UHGV virus genome: UHGV-0071544
Strand: one strand, 5' to 3'
Source of the DNA: a virus
Length of the DNA stretch: 17,196 bases
The position numbers and the translations under genes are program-made. The notes under the pieces are model-generated. The model ran no database searches, was not told the DNA's origin, and worked only from the letters and a program-made list of their open reading frames with translations. Numbering within the stretch: position 1 is the stretch's first letter; the number at the start of each line of letters is the position of its first letter. Shown in pieces: positions 7,551-16,148 of this stretch.

Positions 7551-8267
<717 letters not shown>

Positions 8268-8379
8268 TCGGCAAGGTGTTCTGGTCGGCGCATAGCTGAT
8301 AACAATTGAGCAAGAATCTTCATCGAATTAGGGGAATTTTCACTCCCCTCAGAACATAACATAGTAAATGGATTGAATT

Positions 8380-9219
8380 ATGAAGAATGGTTTTTATGCG
8401 ACTTACCGCAGCAAAAATAAAGGGAAAGATAAGCGCTCAATAAACCTGTCTGTTTTCCTTAATTCTCTGCTGGCTGATAATCATCACCTGCAGGTTGGCT
8501 CCAATTATTTGTATATTCATAAAATCGATGGAAAAACTTTTCTCTTTACCAAAACAAATGACAAGAGTCTGGTTCAGAAGATAAATCGCTCTAAAGCTTC
8601 AGTTGAAGATATTAAGAACAGCCTCGCAGATGACGAATCATTGGGATTCCCATCTTTTTTGTTTGTTGAAGGCGACACCATTGGTTTTGCCAGAACTGTT
8701 TTCGGGCCGACCACATCCGATCTGACAGATTTTTTAATCGGGAAAGGAATGTCATTAAGCAGTGGAGAGCGCGTTCAGATAGAGCCACTGATGAGGGGAA
8801 CCACCAAAGACGATGTTATGCATATGCATTTCATCGGCCGAACAACGGTGAAGGTAGAAGCCAAGCTACCTGTATTTGGCGATATATTAAAGGTCTTAGG
8901 GGCAACAGATATTGAAGGGGAGCTTTTTGACTCATTGGATATAGTCATTAAGCCAAAATTTAAAAGGGATATAAAAAAGGTTGCCAAGGATATTATTTTT
9001 AACCCGTCACCTCAATTTTCAGACATTAGCCTGCGGGCAAAAGATGAGGCCGGAGATATTTTAACAGAACATTATCTATCAGAAAAAGGCCATCTCTCAG
9101 CGCCTCTGAACAAGGTCACCAATGCTGAGATAGCTGAAGAGATGGCATATTGCTACGCAAGAATGAAAAGTGATATACTGGAATGTTTTAAAAGGCAGGT
9201 GGGCAAAGTTAAGGATTAA
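8380..9219 (+). CDS. rexA: RexA (exclusion system sensor/activator)
   Basis: 279 aa, same length and sequence as lambda RexA as recalled; immediately downstream of cI in the pRM operon. Confidence 0.9.
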   Translation: MKNGFYATYRSKNKGKDKRSINLSVFLNSLLADNHHLQVGSNYLYIHKIDGKTFLFTKTNDKSLVQKINRSKASVEDIKNSLADDESLGFPSFLFVEGDTIGFARTVFGPTTSDLTDFLIGKGMSLSSGERVQIEPLMRGTTKDDVMHMHFIGRTTVKVEAKLPVFGDILKVLGATDIEGELFDSLDIVIKPKFKRDIKKVAKDIIFNPSPQFSDISLRAKDEAGDILTEHYLSEKGHLSAPLNKVTNAEIAEEMAYCYARMKSDILECFKRQVGKVKD

Positions 9220-9234
9220 TTATCAGGAGTAATT

Positions 9235-9669
9235 ATGCGGAACAGAATCATGCCTGGTGTTTACATAGTAATAATTCCTTACGTTATCGTAAGCATTTGC
9301 TATCTCCTTTTCCGCCACTACATTCCTGGTGTTTCTTTTTCAGCTCATAGAGATGGTCTTGGGGCGACATTGTCATCATATGCAGGAACCATGATTGCAA
9401 TCCTGATTGCTGCCTTGACGTTTCTAATCGGAAGCAGAACGCGCCGACTGGCCAAGATTAGAGAGTATGGGTATATGACATCGGTAGTTATTGTCTATGC
9501 CCTTAGTTTTGTTGAGCTTGGAGCTTTGTTTTTCTGCGGGTTATTGCTTCTTTCCAGCATAAGCGGCTACATGATACCCACTATCGCCATCGGCATTGCC
9601 TCTGCATCGTTCATTCATATATGCATCCTTGTTTTCCAACTATATAATTTGACCAGAGAACAAGAATAA
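9235..9669 (+). CDS. rexB: RexB (membrane ion-channel component of Rex exclusion)
   Basis: 144 aa with four hydrophobic segments; lambda RexB as recalled. Confidence 0.9.
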   Translation: MRNRIMPGVYIVIIPYVIVSICYLLFRHYIPGVSFSAHRDGLGATLSSYAGTMIAILIAALTFLIGSRTRRLAKIREYGYMTSVVIVYALSFVELGALFFCGLLLLSSISGYMIPTIAIGIASASFIHICILVFQLYNLTREQE

Positions 9670-9697
9670 CCCGGCCTCAGCGCCGGGTTTTCTTTGC
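9669..9697 (+). terminator. Intrinsic terminator ending the cI-rexAB operon (timm-like)
   Basis: ACCCGGC-ctcagc-GCCGGGT followed by TTTCTTTG directly after the rexB stop. Confidence 0.7.
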
Positions 9698-9845
9698 CTC
9701 ACGATCGCCCCCAAAACACATAACCAATTGTATTTATTGAAAAATAAATAGATACAACTCACTAAACATAGCAATTCAGATCTCTCACCTACCAAACAAT
9801 GCCCCCCCCCTGCAAAAAATAAATTCATATAAAAAACATACAGAT

Positions 9846-9908
9846 AACCATCTGCGGTGATAAATTATCTCTGGCGGTGTTGACATAAATACCACTGGCG
9901 GTGATACT
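9846..9908 (+). promoter_or_regulatory. Left operator oL3-oL2-oL1 and pL promoter
   Basis: aaccatctgcggtgata (9846-9862), tatctctggcggtgttg (9866-9882), taccactggcggtgata (9890-9906); -35 TTGACA 9880-9885, -10 GATACT 9903-9908. Confidence 0.9.
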
Positions 9909-9947
9909 GAGCACATCAGCAGGACGCACTGACCACCATGAAGGTGA

Positions 9948-9978
9948 CGCTCTTAAAAATTAAGCCCTGAAGAAGGGC
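9948..9978 (+). promoter_or_regulatory. nutL (boxA CGCTCTTA, boxB GCCCTGAAGAAGGGC)
   Basis: boxA 9948-9955, boxB hairpin 9964-9978, in the pL leader upstream of N. Confidence 0.85.
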
Positions 9979-10088
9979 AGCATTCAAAGCAGAAGGCTTT
10001 GAGTAGCGCGAAATGCAGCTGCAAGACAGCAACCGTGGAGATAAGCATCACGGCGCGTTACTCAAAGCTAACTGACAGGAGAATCCAG

Positions 10089-10415
10089 ATGGATGCACAA
10101 GCACGCCGCCGCGAACGTCGCGCAGAGAAACAGGCTCAATGGAAAGCAGCAAATCCCCTGTTGGTTGGGGTAAGCGCAAAACCAGTTAACCGCCCTATTC
10201 TCTCGCTGAATCGCAAACCGAAATCACGAGTAGAAAGCGCACTGAATCCAATAGACCTTACAGTGCTGGCTGAATACCACGAACAGATTGAAAGCAACCT
10301 GCAACGTATTGAGCGCAAGAATCAGCGCACATGGTACAGCAAGCCACGCAGTGAAATGGGTGTGACTTGTGTTGGTCGCCAGAAAATGAAATTAGGCAGC
10401 AAACCACTTATTTGA
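10089..10415 (+). CDS. N: N antiterminator
   Basis: ATG 10089 with SD AGGAGA gives 107 aa; arginine-rich motif MDAQARRRERRAEKQAQWKAAN; lambda-N-like except the last about 25 residues, which differ from lambda as I recall. Track ORF start 9999 is a leader extension. Confidence 0.9.
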   Translation: MDAQARRRERRAEKQAQWKAANPLLVGVSAKPVNRPILSLNRKPKSRVESALNPIDLTVLAEYHEQIESNLQRIERKNQRTWYSKPRSEMGVTCVGRQKMKLGSKPLI

Positions 10416-11213: not shown

Positions 11214-11332
11214 GGCATAAACAACAGAATAAACACTGCACTGTGTATTCATTCCAACGAGTGAATACACGGAGCAATGTCGCTCGTAACTAAACAGGAG
11301 CCGACTTGTTCTGATTATTGGAAATCTTCTTT

Positions 11333-11359
11333 GCCCTCCAATGTGAGGGCGATTTTTTA
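11333..11359 (+). terminator. Intrinsic terminator upstream of ea10-like gene (tL-type)
   Basis: GCCCTC-caatgt-GAGGGC followed by GATTTTTTAT, 20 nt before the ea10 RBS. Confidence 0.6.
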
Positions 11360-11378
11360 TCTATGAGGAAATGAATAG

Positions 11379-11747
11379 ATGTCAAACATCAAAAAATACA
11401 TCATTGATTACGACTGGAAAGCATCAATAGAAATTGAAATCGACCATGACGTAATGACAGAGGAAAAACTTCACCAGATTAATAATTTCTGGTCAGACTC
11501 TGAATACCGACTCAATAAACACGGCGCTGTATTAAATGCTGTATTAATCATGCTGGCGCAACATGCTCTGCTTATAGCAATTTCGAAAGACTTAAATGCA
11601 TATGGTGTTGTTTGTGAGTTCGACTGGGATGATGGAAATGGTCAGGAAGGATGGCCTCCAATGGATGGTAGTGAAGGAATAAGAATTACCGATATCGATA
11701 CATCAGGAATATTTGATTCAGATGATATGACTATCAAAGCCGCCTGA
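11379..11747 (+). CDS. Ea10-like protein (lambda early-left protein)
   Basis: 122 aa, same length as lambda Ea10 and in the equivalent position between the N-proximal genes and cIII; SD GAGGA upstream. Identity to lambda Ea10 not verifiable here. Confidence 0.6.
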   Translation: MSNIKKYIIDYDWKASIEIEIDHDVMTEEKLHQINNFWSDSEYRLNKHGAVLNAVLIMLAQHALLIAISKDLNAYGVVCEFDWDDGNGQEGWPPMDGSEGIRITDIDTSGIFDSDDMTIKAA

Positions 11748-11822
11748 GCGCGGCTTTACCGCATACCAATAATGCTTCACGAGAGGCATTTTCGTTATGC
11801 AATCAAATATAAGGAGTTACCC

Positions 11823-11957
11823 ATGATGCACTTTCAGCTCGCGGGTAGCGGCGTCATGTCCGCTTTCTACCCGCACGAATCTGAATTATCACGCCGAGTT
11901 AAACAATTAATCAGAGCAGCAAAGAAACAACTGGAGGCGTTATGCGCAATGAAATAG
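11823..11957 (+). CDS. CIII-like protein (FtsH/HflB protease inhibitor family), non-lambda allele
   Basis: ATG 11823 after SD AAGGAG; 44 aa MMHFQLAGSGVMSAFYPHESELSRRVKQLIRAAKKQLEALCAMK; amphipathic ESELSRR..QL..A.K motif like the CIII/C3 family but not lambda CIII. Confidence 0.55.
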   Translation: MMHFQLAGSGVMSAFYPHESELSRRVKQLIRAAKKQLEALCAMK

Positions 11958-12094
11958 CCATTAATCACCAGATGCTTCGTGCTGCACAGAACAAAGCAGT
12001 AATAGCCAGATTTATTGGTGATTCAAAAATGTGGCTTGAAGCAAATAAAGCGATGAAATCAGCTATCAACCATCCGTGGTATCGCAGGAAATGA
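11942..12094 (+). CDS. Kil-like small protein (FtsZ-inhibitor family)
   Basis: 50 aa MRNEIAINHQMLRAAQNKAVIARFIGDSKMWLEANKAMKSAINHPWYRRK; motif IA.FIGD.KM shared with lambda Kil as recalled; overlaps the cIII-like 3' end by 16 nt as kil/cIII do in lambda. Below the ORF-track cutoff. Confidence 0.5.
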   Translation: MRNEIAINHQMLRAAQNKAVIARFIGDSKMWLEANKAMKSAINHPWYRRK

Positions 12095-12249
12095 GTTTTA
12101 CAGATAACTGGTCAGACGAAGAATTCATTCGTCAGATGAAAGAATTAATCGGTAACGAAGGAGATATTCATGTCACTTGCAACCACAGTGAAGGAGAGCA
12201 AGTTACAGAGACGCATGTACACGCAGAAAGCTCTCTGGTATCGCCATAA
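12091..12249 (+). CDS. Small hypothetical ORF (52 aa), position of P22 arf
   Basis: ATGA overlap with the kil-like stop; MSFTDNWSDEEFIRQMKELIGNEGDIHVTCNHSEGEQVTETHVHAESSLVSP; lies between kil and erf as arf does in P22-type operons. Below the ORF-track cutoff. Confidence 0.4.
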   Translation: MSFTDNWSDEEFIRQMKELIGNEGDIHVTCNHSEGEQVTETHVHAESSLVSP

Positions 12250-12350
12250 TGGCGACCGCGAAGGAATGCAGGTATGCCTTAATTTGTCCCGAGTCGAAGT
12301 ATTAAATCAGCGTTATTTCCTTGGGCCATGTCCATTCTGAGAACAAACAT

Positions 12351-12956
12351 ATGAGCAAAGAATTTTATGCAAGACTGGCAGCTATTCAGGAGAATCTGAA
12401 CGCGCCAAAGAATCAGTACAACTCATTCGGTAAATATAAATACAGAAGCTGCGAAGACATTCTTGAAGGCGTTAAGCCGTTACTGAATGGTCTGTTTTTA
12501 TCAATCAGCGATGAAGTTGTGTTGATTGGTGATCGGTATTACGTGAAAGCCACGGCAACTATCACCGATGGCGAAAACAGTCATACGGCAACCGCACTAG
12601 CACGAGAGGAAGAAAGCAAGAAAGGAATGGATTCTGCACAAGTTACTGGAGCTACAAGCTCTTATGCACGCAAGTATTGCCTCAATGGTTTGTTCGGCAT
12701 TGATGATGCGAAAGATGCAGATACAGACGAGCATAAACATCAGCAGAACGCAGCAGCAAAGCAATCAAAACCATCACCTACACCTGAACAGGTTCTAAAA
12801 GCATTCACTGACGCAGCATTGCAGAAAAACACCGTGGAAGAGCTTAAACAGGCGTTCGCCAAAGCGTGGAAGATGCTCGAAGGCACACCGGAGCAGCAAA
12901 AAGCGCAGGACGTTTACAACATCAGACGAGACGAATTAGAAGGGGCGGCCGCTTAA
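12351..12956 (+). CDS. erf: Erf-family single-strand annealing recombinase
   Basis: ATG 12351 gives 201 aa beginning MSKEFYARLAAIQENLNAPKNQYNSFGKYKYRSCEDILEGVKPLL, very similar to P22 Erf as recalled. The track ORF start at 12321 is a TTG upstream extension. Confidence 0.85.
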   Translation: MSKEFYARLAAIQENLNAPKNQYNSFGKYKYRSCEDILEGVKPLLNGLFLSISDEVVLIGDRYYVKATATITDGENSHTATALAREEESKKGMDSAQVTGATSSYARKYCLNGLFGIDDAKDADTDEHKHQQNAAAKQSKPSPTPEQVLKAFTDAALQKNTVEELKQAFAKAWKMLEGTPEQQKAQDVYNIRRDELEGAAA

Positions 12957-13339
12957 TGGCACATTCGATTACTGTAAGACTAAACAAGCCCGCAAGAGAG
13001 TTTCAGGCCGGGGAAAATATCGGATTCAACATCCGTGCTGGAGTTCAGTATTACGATCGCCAGACAGAAAAGAAAGAATGGACAAACTACAGCGCCGTTG
13101 TATTTGCCAAGCCGGGAGCGCAAGCGGATTACTACCGTAGTGTTCTTGTTGAAGGTGGCATTGTTGAAATTACCGGAGAAAACATCAGGGTTGATATTTA
13201 TCAGGGGCAAAATGGTCAATCAATCACTCTTGAATTACTGAATGCAAAGATTGGATTTGCAGCTTCAGGAAATGGCCCGCAGCAGCAAAGTAGTAACCAG
13301 CAGAACACTCCTGTATACGACGATTCCATCCCATTCTGA
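12956..13339 (+). CDS. Short SSB-like single-stranded DNA-binding protein
   Basis: ATG 12956 (TAATG overlap with erf stop) gives 127 aa; OB-fold-like N-terminal region, Gln/Gly-rich linker and acidic C-terminal tail ...VYDDSIPF resembling the SSB DDDIPF client-binding tip. Confidence 0.7.
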   Translation: MAHSITVRLNKPAREFQAGENIGFNIRAGVQYYDRQTEKKEWTNYSAVVFAKPGAQADYYRSVLVEGGIVEITGENIRVDIYQGQNGQSITLELLNAKIGFAASGNGPQQQSSNQQNTPVYDDSIPF

Positions 13340-13362
13340 TTTAGAAAAATAAGGATTTAATT

Positions 13363-13656
13363 ATGCCAGCGCCTTTGTATGGTGCGGATGACCCGCGCCG
13401 CTGTTCCGGCAATTCCGTATCGGAGGTGCTGGATAAATTCAGAAAAAACTACGATCGAATAATGTCTCTACCGCAGGAAACGAAAGAGGAAAAGGAATTT
13501 CGCCACTGTATATGGCTTGCAGAGAAAGAAGAACGCGAGCGAATTTACCAGACATCAATCCGACCATTCCGCAAAGCCACATATACCCACTTCCCTGAAA
13601 TTGACCCGCGCCTGCGTAATTACCGCTCACGCTATGGCGCTATCAGTAATGACTGA
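13363..13656 (+). CDS. Hypothetical 97-aa protein; possibly Abc2-type anti-RecBCD factor by position
   Basis: Good RBS AAGGA; follows the erf/ssb genes, where P22-type phages carry the abc genes; no motif I can verify. Confidence 0.45.
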
Positions 13657-13666
13657 GGAATTTACA

Positions 13667-13834
13667 ATGAGAGGACTTGCATACAATCCCGGCATTCTTC
13701 CGGCAGAAATGATTATTCGCCAACGCGTAAAGCCAATGCCATCGAGAGAGGAATTGCTTAAGAGAAATTCTTTTCCGTCAGTAAATCAAAACAAATATCT
13801 GAATGCGATGTGGCGCAAAGGAGGCAACCAGTGA
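13667..13834 (+). CDS. Small hypothetical ORF (55 aa)
   Basis: ATG 13667 with SD GAGGA 9 nt upstream; [55 protein letters not shown]; the longer track ORF 13517.. overlaps the preceding gene. Confidence 0.4.
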
Positions 13835-14055
13835 GCGGAAAAAGAATGACTAACAGAGAGCTTGTCGATGCCGCGATTAAGCTTGCTGGTGATTTTTATT
13901 CAATGATGGGGTACACGCATCGCCCAGGCTTCAAATATTGGGAGTCTCCTCACCCGCAAGAGCAACTGGTATTTCAAATGGCCTGCCGTGCTTTTGAGGT
14001 TATTCGCGGTTCTGATGTGATGGACGCCGTTGCCGACTTGGAGGATGAAGAGTGA
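13831..14055 (+). CDS. Hypothetical protein (74 aa from GTG 13831, or 69 aa from ATG 13846)
   Basis: SD AAAGGAGG 7 nt upstream of GTG 13831, GTGA overlap with the upstream stop; acidic C-terminus DLEDEE. Confidence 0.5.
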
Positions 14056-14462
14056 ACAAGATTGACTATCAGGCACTGCGTGAAGCGGCAGAGAAAGCCG
14101 GTGAAGATAAGTGGCAGGCTAAAAAAATAAATGGTGATTTTTTCGTTATTCGTCACGGTAGTTATACAAGACAGCATGGCTACACATTGTATCAACCCAT
14201 TGCGGAGATTGATTGTAAGCCAGTCCGGGATTTTGTTGCCAAGGCTAATCCGGCTACCGTGCTGGAATTACTGGATGAACTGGAAGCAGCAAAAAAGCGC
14301 ATTGCAGAACTGGAAGCGCGGGAAATACTGCTCCCGGAACGTAGCAGCATGCTTCATCGAACAGATTTTCACGATGATTACCAAACGGTAATGGCATACA
14401 AAGTTTCTGAAGTCATCGCTGCAATCCGCGCCGCAGGCATTCGCATCAAAGGAGGTGAGTAA
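14052..14462 (+). CDS. Hypothetical coiled-coil protein (136 aa), Ead/Ea22-region type
   Basis: GTG start after SD GGAGGA, overlapping the upstream stop; heptad-like segment LELLDELEAAKKRIAELEAREILL. Confidence 0.55.
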   Translation: MNKIDYQALREAAEKAGEDKWQAKKINGDFFVIRHGSYTRQHGYTLYQPIAEIDCKPVRDFVAKANPATVLELLDELEAAKKRIAELEAREILLPERSSMLHRTDFHDDYQTVMAYKVSEVIAAIRAAGIRIKGGE

Positions 14463-15906: not shown

Positions 15907-15945
15907 CGTGTAATTGCGGAGACTTTGCGATGTACTTGACACTTC
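15904..15945 (+). promoter_or_regulatory. pI promoter with CII site TTGC-N6-TTGC
   Basis: ttgcgtgtaattgc at 15904-15917 overlapping the xis 5' end, as in lambda pI. Confidence 0.6.
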
Positions 15946-16148
15946 AGGAGTGGAACGCACGCCAGCGACGTCCAAGAAGCCTTGAAACAGTTCGTCGATG
16001 GGTGCGCGAATGCAGGATATTCCCTCCTCCGGTTAAGGATGGAAGAGAGTATCTGTTCCACGAATCAGCGGTAAAGGTTGACTTAAATCGACCAGTAACA
16101 GGTAGCCTTTTGAAGAGGATCAGAAATGGGAAGAAGGCGAAGTCATGA
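15930..16148 (+). CDS. xis: Excisionase Xis
   Basis: 72 aa MYLTLQEWNARQRRPRSLETVRRWVRECRIFPPPVKDGREYLFHESAVKVDLNRPVTGSLLKRIRNGKKAKS, lambda Xis as recalled; 23-nt overlap with int. Confidence 0.95.
   Translation: MYLTLQEWNARQRRPRSLETVRRWVRECRIFPPPVKDGREYLFHESAVKVDLNRPVTGSLLKRIRNGKKAKS

Follow-up and report, generated by a model that had tools for sequence, protein, structure and literature searches.

Positions 11823-13656 of the viral genome UHGV-0071544, a stretch of 17,196 nucleotides (hereafter the window), raise the question of which genes have come to stand in the place of the Red genes exo, bet and gam of phage lambda, and how their products might act together. The analysis indicates with considerable confidence that this block is a lambdoid recombination module of the HK97/HK022 type, in which RecBCD-mediated resection under the influence of Abc2, coating of single strands by a phage single-strand DNA-binding protein (SSB) and annealing by Erf would be combined. 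When positions 11300-14100 were searched against phage records using megablast, 434 records matched, with HK97, HK022, HK106, HK446, Sf101 and many Stx phages showing 95-97% DNA identity. The gene order annotated in HK97, namely cIII, kil, gp42.1/gp42, erf, gp40 and abc2, is identical, and the same genes are also annotated in HK022 and HK106; given this level of identity to phages carrying these annotated genes, the arrangement cannot be attributed to chance. Furthermore, every gene of the block can be assigned to a conserved phage family in the PHROGs database, and the Pfam and PHROG matches confirm the gene list and coordinates of a preliminary description, made from the sequence alone, according to which an Erf-type module has replaced exo-bet-gam; the block does occupy the lambda Red slot. 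Most of the more particular claims of that description also proved sound: the non-lambda cIII-like gene encodes a cIII of the HK022/HK97 type (PF08134), the kil-like gene a lambda-Kil homologue (PF06301), the assignment of Erf agrees with its Pfam family and its 75% identity to P22 Erf, and the short SSB-like protein with the acidic tail DDSIPF is upheld by its predicted fold, a profile-profile match and the conservation of the tip. The 97-residue product, for which only the abc position had been proposed, is Abc2 itself (~92-94% identity to that of P22).

The module is already described and common, and represents textbook lambdoid mosaicism in which Red has been replaced by Erf and Abc2. A survey of 325 lambdoid phages (Genome Res 2025; PMC12315714) recognised the combination of an anti-RecBCD protein, an SSB and an annealing protein, with no nuclease, as one functional type (the "HK75 functional type", 27 phages), and reported that the AlphaFold 3 structure of HK97 gp40, which it named "SSB-1b", resembles bacterial SSBs. 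The survey contains no mention of the acidic tip of gp40, and an analysis of the "shuffling of partner interaction domains" is explicitly left aside in it. Among complete E. coli genomes, the erf-SSB-abc2 trio is found in 556 of 5,426 at a coverage of at least 80%, and the Prokaryotic Genome Annotation Pipeline (PGAP) labels its members "ERF family protein", "hypothetical protein" and "phage anti-RecBCD protein", respectively.

Abc2 exceeds the cut-off of its Pfam family by a wide margin (212.7 bits against 25), and a phmmer search recovers the P22 Abc2 of the RecBCD-bound structures (PDB: 8b1t/8b1u) with an E-value of 2e-58 over residues 1-97. The identity amounts to ~92% with the PDB chain and to 91 of 97 residues with the protein of NC_002371; Pro68, the PpiB site, is retained, and the part that is ordered on RecC (residues 3-52) displays a single substitution (R32L). 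The role of P68, the binding of Abc2 to RecC and a model of Erf loading have been described for P22, in support of Murphy's model in which RecBCD is hijacked by Abc2 so that DNA is resected on behalf of Erf, the recombinase of the phage (PMC9836394). At ~92-94% sequence identity to the P22 protein, the Abc2 of the present phage would be expected to share RecC binding, an altered response to Chi and recombinase loading.

The 127-residue product of the gene between erf and abc2, which is 93% identical to HK97 gp40, matches no Pfam family, including the SSB family PF00436, at an E-value of 0.1 or better, scores 14.7 bits with the curated SSB model TIGR00621, below the cut-off of 53.95, and in a phmmer search of the PDB detects an SSB (PDB: 4dam) only at an E-value of 0.58. 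The 317 homologues recovered from a large protein database are likewise mostly "hypothetical proteins" without a Pfam domain. However, an AlphaFold2 model based on 44 homologues (mean predicted local distance difference test score, or pLDDT, 84) shows a β-barrel with one helix in residues 1-105, followed by a segment of low confidence (residues 107-127) that is predicted to be disordered. In Foldseek searches of the PDB with this model each of the top 22 matches is an SSB of bacterial or mitochondrial origin, and the rest of the top 50 are nearly all SSB or PriB (best E-value 2.6e-5; template modelling, or TM, scores 0.4-0.55). Consistent with this, a profile of the family could be aligned over residues 45-104 with one representing 14 canonical SSBs (probability 93.6%, E-value 2e-7), and phrog_44, annotated as "single strand DNA binding protein", contains both gp40 and canonical SSBs. 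By-eye comparison of the profile alignment suggests that F50 and K52 match F60 and K62 of E. coli SSB, with W42 and Y33 plausibly matching W54 and W40.

The architecture outside the barrel points in the same direction. The OB fold (residues 1-105) is followed by a linker rich in Q, N and S and by an acidic tip, the protein ending in ...VYDDSIPF with DDSIPF encoded at 13319-13336. The host SSB carries the tip DDDIPF, to which the phage tip is nearly identical. Full-length homologues terminate in a tip of the form acidic-x-(I/P)P(F/Y) in 82 of 108 cases, and the composition of the segment between OB fold and tip (Q 34%, P 12%) is like that of the bacterial SSB linker; from these sequence features, the resemblance of the tail to that of bacterial SSBs is not due to chance. 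Thus, the protein shares with E. coli SSB the OB fold, a linker that is disordered and rich in Q and P, and the acidic tip ...DD(D/S)IPF, but differs from it in its low identity in structural alignments (~10-19%), its scores below the curated cut-offs, and its shorter length of 127 residues with a linker of ~20 residues. On the whole, the modelled structure places it as a highly diverged member of the SSB superfamily with the canonical three-part architecture, and by virtue of this fold and architecture it is predicted to bind single-stranded DNA. Recruitment of SSB-interacting proteins by the DDSIPF tail is plausible by analogy with the SSB of phage HK620 (PMC5928155).

More distant homologues, 53-58% identical (P0091-P0120), possess much longer Q/P-rich linkers, and many of them are devoid of the IPF tip, ending instead in ...NFQQPR, ...FPQHQG or ...PDDDWV. 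These non-IPF tails suggest that in such forms the SSB tail may have been retuned to other partners. Relatives of the 127-residue protein were also detected by tblastn in many Vibrio phages.

The role of this protein could nevertheless be conceived differently. It might serve mainly as a host-takeover decoy or as a replication factor rather than as a partner of Erf, with its tip competing with E. coli SSB for RecO, RecQ, ExoI, PriA and the chi subunit of pol III, such that host repair on phage DNA is diverted or blocked. The near-identity of the tip to that of the host, its retention in enteric homologues, the occurrence of other tails in marine homologues, as expected of partner-tuned tails, and the dedication of the module to subverting host recombination through Abc2 are all in line with such a function. 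Against it, translation of the gene is coupled to that of erf, its start codon overlapping the erf stop codon (ATGA), the gene always adjoins erf, and the tail of the HK620 SSB acts on the cognate annealase (PMC5928155); we therefore regard the decoy as improbable as the main function, while noting that decoy and Erf-serving roles are compatible and not mutually exclusive.

Two further possibilities carry far less weight. The exact correspondence of the gene to the abc1 slot of P22, between erf and abc2, and the original annotation of the HK620 gene in the same slot as abc1, could be taken to mean that the protein is a functional analogue of Abc1, a second RecBCD modulator in which OB fold and tail are incidental; this is very unlikely given that its sequence bears no resemblance to that of Abc1, that Abc1 matches helix-turn-helix (HTH) and regulator families rather than OB folds, that the HK620 "abc1" proved to be an SSB, and that fold, linker and tip all indicate an SSB. 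Homology with Abc1 was itself rejected, there being no BLASTP alignment at an E-value of 100 or better. Least credible is the notion of a decaying passenger gene without current function, which might be entertained in view of the RefSeq label "hypothetical protein" and the few loci with frameshifted or truncated copies, such as mEp234: in the OB core, 18 positions are invariant and 25 nearly so in homologues down to 53% identity, the tip is conserved, and the trio is intact in the 556 E. coli genomes noted above.

By homology, Erf would be a Rad52-like, ring-forming annealing protein. In the present phage it scores 151.6 bits with PF04404 (cut-off 25) over residues 5-143, and comprises an ERF core (residues 1 to ~135) that is joined by a linker to a predicted three-helix bundle at the C-terminus (residues ~145-199; 12783-12947 in the window). 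Divergence from P22 Erf is concentrated past residue ~150, whereas the first 135 residues, used as a reference (ErfNTD_w), are 92% identical in P22-type loci (L084-L086 of the set described below). A model of the last 66 residues is a three-helix bundle with a pLDDT of 87.8, the helices spanning positions 10-23, 27-41 and 46-64 of the fragment. A word-indexed homologue search with this domain alone returned only Erf fragments, and an exhaustive phmmer search gave 19 hits, the longer of which are mostly Erf-length proteins or Erf fragments.

To relate the type of C-terminal domain to the gene that follows erf, loci (given L numbers here) were fetched with both the Erf of this phage and P22 Erf. 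Wherever the C-terminal domain is of the type seen here, the next gene is a gp40-type SSB in all sufficiently long loci except L094-L098 and L100. In these latter loci the C-terminal domain is 86-88% identical and is immediately followed by a canonical SSB of 153-157 residues ending in DFDDDIPF or DDSDIPF; this in turn is followed by a DnaQ-like exonuclease (module L094 3001-4930) or by an HNH-like endonuclease (module L100 2953-4870), and then by a diverged Abc2 (phrog_656, E-value 9e-32, in modules of the L094 and L100 types). After P22-type C-terminal domains comes Abc1 (L084-L086). Among records of the phage collection, a query made of the P22 erf tail and abc1 was covered in both parts in 78 of 86 matching records, and one made of the erf tail and gp40 of this phage in 46 of 51, the partial matches being mostly truncated records or confined to the beginning of the P22 query, which is a shared linker; mEp234 is an exception, having the erf tail with a truncated gp40. 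[quoted passage not shown] Beyond these phages, a scan of species-representative genomes revealed a C-terminal motif like that of this Erf in Erfs of the Neisseria group with an SSB nearby, and among 45 distant Erf loci, mostly from metagenome-assembled genomes (MAGs) of Firmicutes and Bacteroidota, a tip-bearing SSB is encoded no more than a few genes downstream in about a third.

Taken together, these patterns raise the possibility, which we hold only tentatively, that the last ~55 residues of Erf constitute a swappable three-helix docking domain that is co-inherited with a partner gene, with the DDSIPF tip of the SSB as its ligand. The type seen here travels with tip-bearing phage SSBs of two very different sequence types and the P22 type with Abc1; it is similarly conceivable, if doubtful, that the phage in this way supplies its own loading platform for Erf, the tip also being able to capture clients of the host SSB. 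Several observations weigh against this proposal. The link between C-terminal type and downstream gene could reflect plain physical linkage of adjacent DNA. Among IMG/VR loci the P22 type is represented by only three near-identical examples, and these Erf scans, being dominated by near-identical HK97-type loci, provide little independent sampling for co-variation. Fold searches with the C-terminal domain yielded only generic helical bundles (de novo designs and GAF-flanking helices), and the C-terminal domain of lambda Beta was not among the top 60 matches. One protein (P0149; L207 111-551) consists of a C-terminal fragment of the RecT family (PF03837) with a helical tail that is 44% identical to the Erf C-terminal domain, which may exemplify this tail in a different family of annealases; it has no SSB gene downstream, and it comes from a contig of 1.6 kb at 3.5x coverage with an in-frame stop upstream, so that it is best treated as a lead and not as evidence. 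As physical linkage predicts the same pattern and independent junctions are few, the docking domain is put forward here as a hypothesis.

Of separate interest are two MAG contigs binned as methanogenic archaea, L184 (labelled Candidatus Methanarcanum) and L196 (labelled Methanobrevibacter), with Erf cores 53-55% identical to enterobacterial Erf, the former with a tip-bearing SSB (ending in ...DDEGLPFN) 200 nt downstream of Erf. They could reflect archaeal viruses, binning contamination or gene transfer.

There are precedents for an SSB tip acting on an annealing protein. In HK620 (hkaM-sak4-ssb-abc2) the gene between the annealase and abc2, first called abc1, encodes a diverged SSB; stimulation of the annealase Sak4, in vivo as well as in vitro, requires the final six residues of this SSB (NDYPPF) (PMC5928155). 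HK620 thus shares with the present module a diverged phage SSB that is encoded between annealase and abc2 and whose tip resembles that of the host (NDYPPF in HK620, DDSIPF here), but its annealase is the RecA-like, ATP-dependent Sak4 in place of Erf, and its SSB belongs to a different sequence type, "SSB-2". Annealing proteins of the RecT family, including lambda Redbeta, recognise the last seven residues of the SSB, by which compatibility with the SSB is set (bioRxiv 10.1101/2020.04.14.041095). Lambda Red shares with the module the genomic slot and overall purpose, both having an annealing protein and an anti-RecBCD factor, and lambda Beta binds the tip of the host SSB (PMC12315714, bioRxiv 10.1101/2020.04.14.041095). 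It differs in that an SSB is encoded by the present module itself, no match to an exonuclease was obtained here, and Gam blocks RecBCD where Abc2 modifies it.

In the mechanism suggested by these comparisons, the block would be expressed by transcription from pL, antiterminated by N. Abc2 would bind RecC, with RecBCD being reprogrammed and not blocked so as to become the resection engine of the module, as the P22 work and the sequence identity suggest; this host-supplied end resection would explain how the module can lack a nuclease of its own. The phage SSB, to judge from its fold and architecture, would coat the resulting single strands, and Erf would then be recruited through the SSB tip to the SSB-covered DNA and anneal the complementary strand, a step for which the HK620 and Beta precedents and the linkage pattern argue. 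The contact with the tip would be made by the C-terminal three-helix bundle of Erf. Titration of host SSB clients by the tip is compatible with this loading mechanism.

The P22 system (c3-kil-arf-erf-abc1-abc2) follows a common logic, having no nuclease and hijacking RecBCD by means of Abc2, and the close similarity of Abc2 and of the Erf core to those of P22 and P22-type loci has been noted above. It differs in having Abc1 where the SSB stands here, in Arf, Kil and C3 proteins drawn from different sequence families, and in the last ~50 residues of Erf, which in the present phage are of a diverged type. P22 Abc1 (L003 26970-27254) matches phrog_323, "transcriptional regulator, D5-like" (E-value 1e-23), as well as an HTH family, and in several records it carries the annotation "sigma-70 family protein". 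These sequence matches raise the prospect that P22 Abc1 acts as an HTH protein on DNA and does not bind RecBCD directly.

Table 1. Genes of the block at 11823-13656 of the window, with family assignments
Gene	Coordinates	Strand	Product and family matches
cIII	11823-11957	+	44 aa, HK022/HK97 type; Pfam PF08134 E 2e-30, phrog_550
kil	11942-12094	+	50 aa, lambda-Kil homologue; Pfam PF06301 E 1.7e-20, phrog_2055 E 2e-35
orf52	12091-12249	+	52 aa, acidic, P22 arf position; phrog_2123 full-length, E 7e-42
orf56 (= HK97 gp42)	12170-12340	+	56 aa, basic; phrog_1723 E 1e-35
erf	12351-12956	+	201 aa, single-strand annealing protein; PF04404 E 2e-44
SSB-like gene (= HK97 gp40, "SSB-1b")	12956-13339	+	127 aa; phrog_44, E 1.3e-26
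abc2	13363-13656	+	97 aa, anti-RecBCD protein 2; PF11043 E 6e-64, full length

The remaining genes of the block (Table 1) precede erf. cIII, which is annotated at the corresponding position in HK97, scores 104.7 bits with its Pfam family (cut-off 25), and Kil 72.6 bits (cut-off 27.6). cIII is an inhibitor of the FtsH protease and Kil an inhibitor of FtsZ and septation; the two are co-transcribed regulatory and host-takeover neighbours, not recombination proteins.

Between kil and erf, the preliminary description had posited one small open reading frame (ORF) in the arf position. The position is correct, but there are two overlapping ORFs, and neither can be placed in the Arf family. orf56 overlaps orf52 by 80 nt in a different frame and ends 10 nt before erf, and a homologue of it (31-38% identical) lies directly upstream of erf in L094-L098. 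Neither product is matched by Pfam, and their PHROGs are distinct from that of P22 Arf (phrog_2445), leaving homology to Arf unsupported. BLASTP of the orf52 product against P22 Arf gave only a 7-residue match (E-value 0.013) around the N-terminal motif SDEEFI, and BLASTP of the orf56 product against Arf found nothing. The orf52 product is acidic, as is Arf, and in L100 an unrelated 53-residue ORF preceding erf carries a similar motif, WDDDAFI. The likeness of these motifs to Arf offers a lead for analogy and not proof of family membership, and orf52 and orf56 are conserved accessory genes of unassigned role. In the GenBank and RefSeq records of HK97, two extra bases within the corresponding region (L001/L002 1892-2143) fuse the small ORFs into the 83-residue "gp42.1". 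By contrast, separate ORFs of 52 or 56 and of 56 residues with the 80-nt overlap are found in each of the 60 remaining distinct sequences (128 loci), in a region of 260 nt (278 nt in one). The fusion in HK97 probably arose through an error in sequencing or through a change peculiar to that strain.

The flanking genes fix the position of the block on the phage map. On its 5' side lie a cI-type repressor of 237 residues, rexA, rexB, a promoter resembling pL (9880-9908, TTGACA-17-GATACT) and an N-like gene, followed, before cIII, by two unassigned genes, terminator-like hairpins and a DUF2528 gene; on its 3' side there are DUF2737, several unassigned genes and the integrase. No match to exo, bet or gam was found among the ORFs scanned between N and int, a few ORFs there, such as 15930-16148, having been left unscanned. 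On the basis of these flanks and of the missing Red match, the block is part of the early-left (pL) operon of a lambdoid phage or prophage, in the position of lambda Red. The immunity region (7554-10415) is arranged as in lambda, with a cI-type repressor, rexA and rexB homologues, the pL-like promoter and the N-like gene, and its junction with an HK97-type recombination module is typical lambdoid mosaicism.

Relative to the Rec module of HK97 and HK022, then, gene content and order are shared, and the differences include the cI-rexA-rexB type of immunity region, the separate small ORFs, and the 369-nt DUF2528 gene, which HK97 lacks. This gene (11379-11747; 122 aa; PF10800, E-value 4e-46; phrog_646) occupies the interval from a tL-like terminator hairpin (11331-11352) to cIII, where HK97 holds only ~66 nt, and in view of that short interval it looks like a moron-style insertion, as judged from coordinates and not from an alignment.

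In the records of mEp213, mEp234 and the PhiR12 series (PV340538-PV340553), erf is annotated as "Bet" in spite of 95-98% DNA identity to the erf gene studied here. A true Bet beside gp40 in the PhiR12 and mEp records can be dismissed as a mis-label, the DNA being 95-96% identical to the erf tail and gp40 of the window; such an annotation error could mislead the typing of modules.

As for what the module means more generally, ~10% of complete E. coli genomes contain the gene for its SSB, still under the label "hypothetical protein". Erf and its cognate SSB might be developed as a compact recombineering tool, a practical value that would be modest. If the proposed link between the C-terminal domain of Erf and the SSB tip is true, it would explain how annealing proteins remain matched to their partners during the shuffling of modules, and would give a concrete instance in lambdoid phages of what has been termed "shuffling of partner interaction domains" (PMC12315714).

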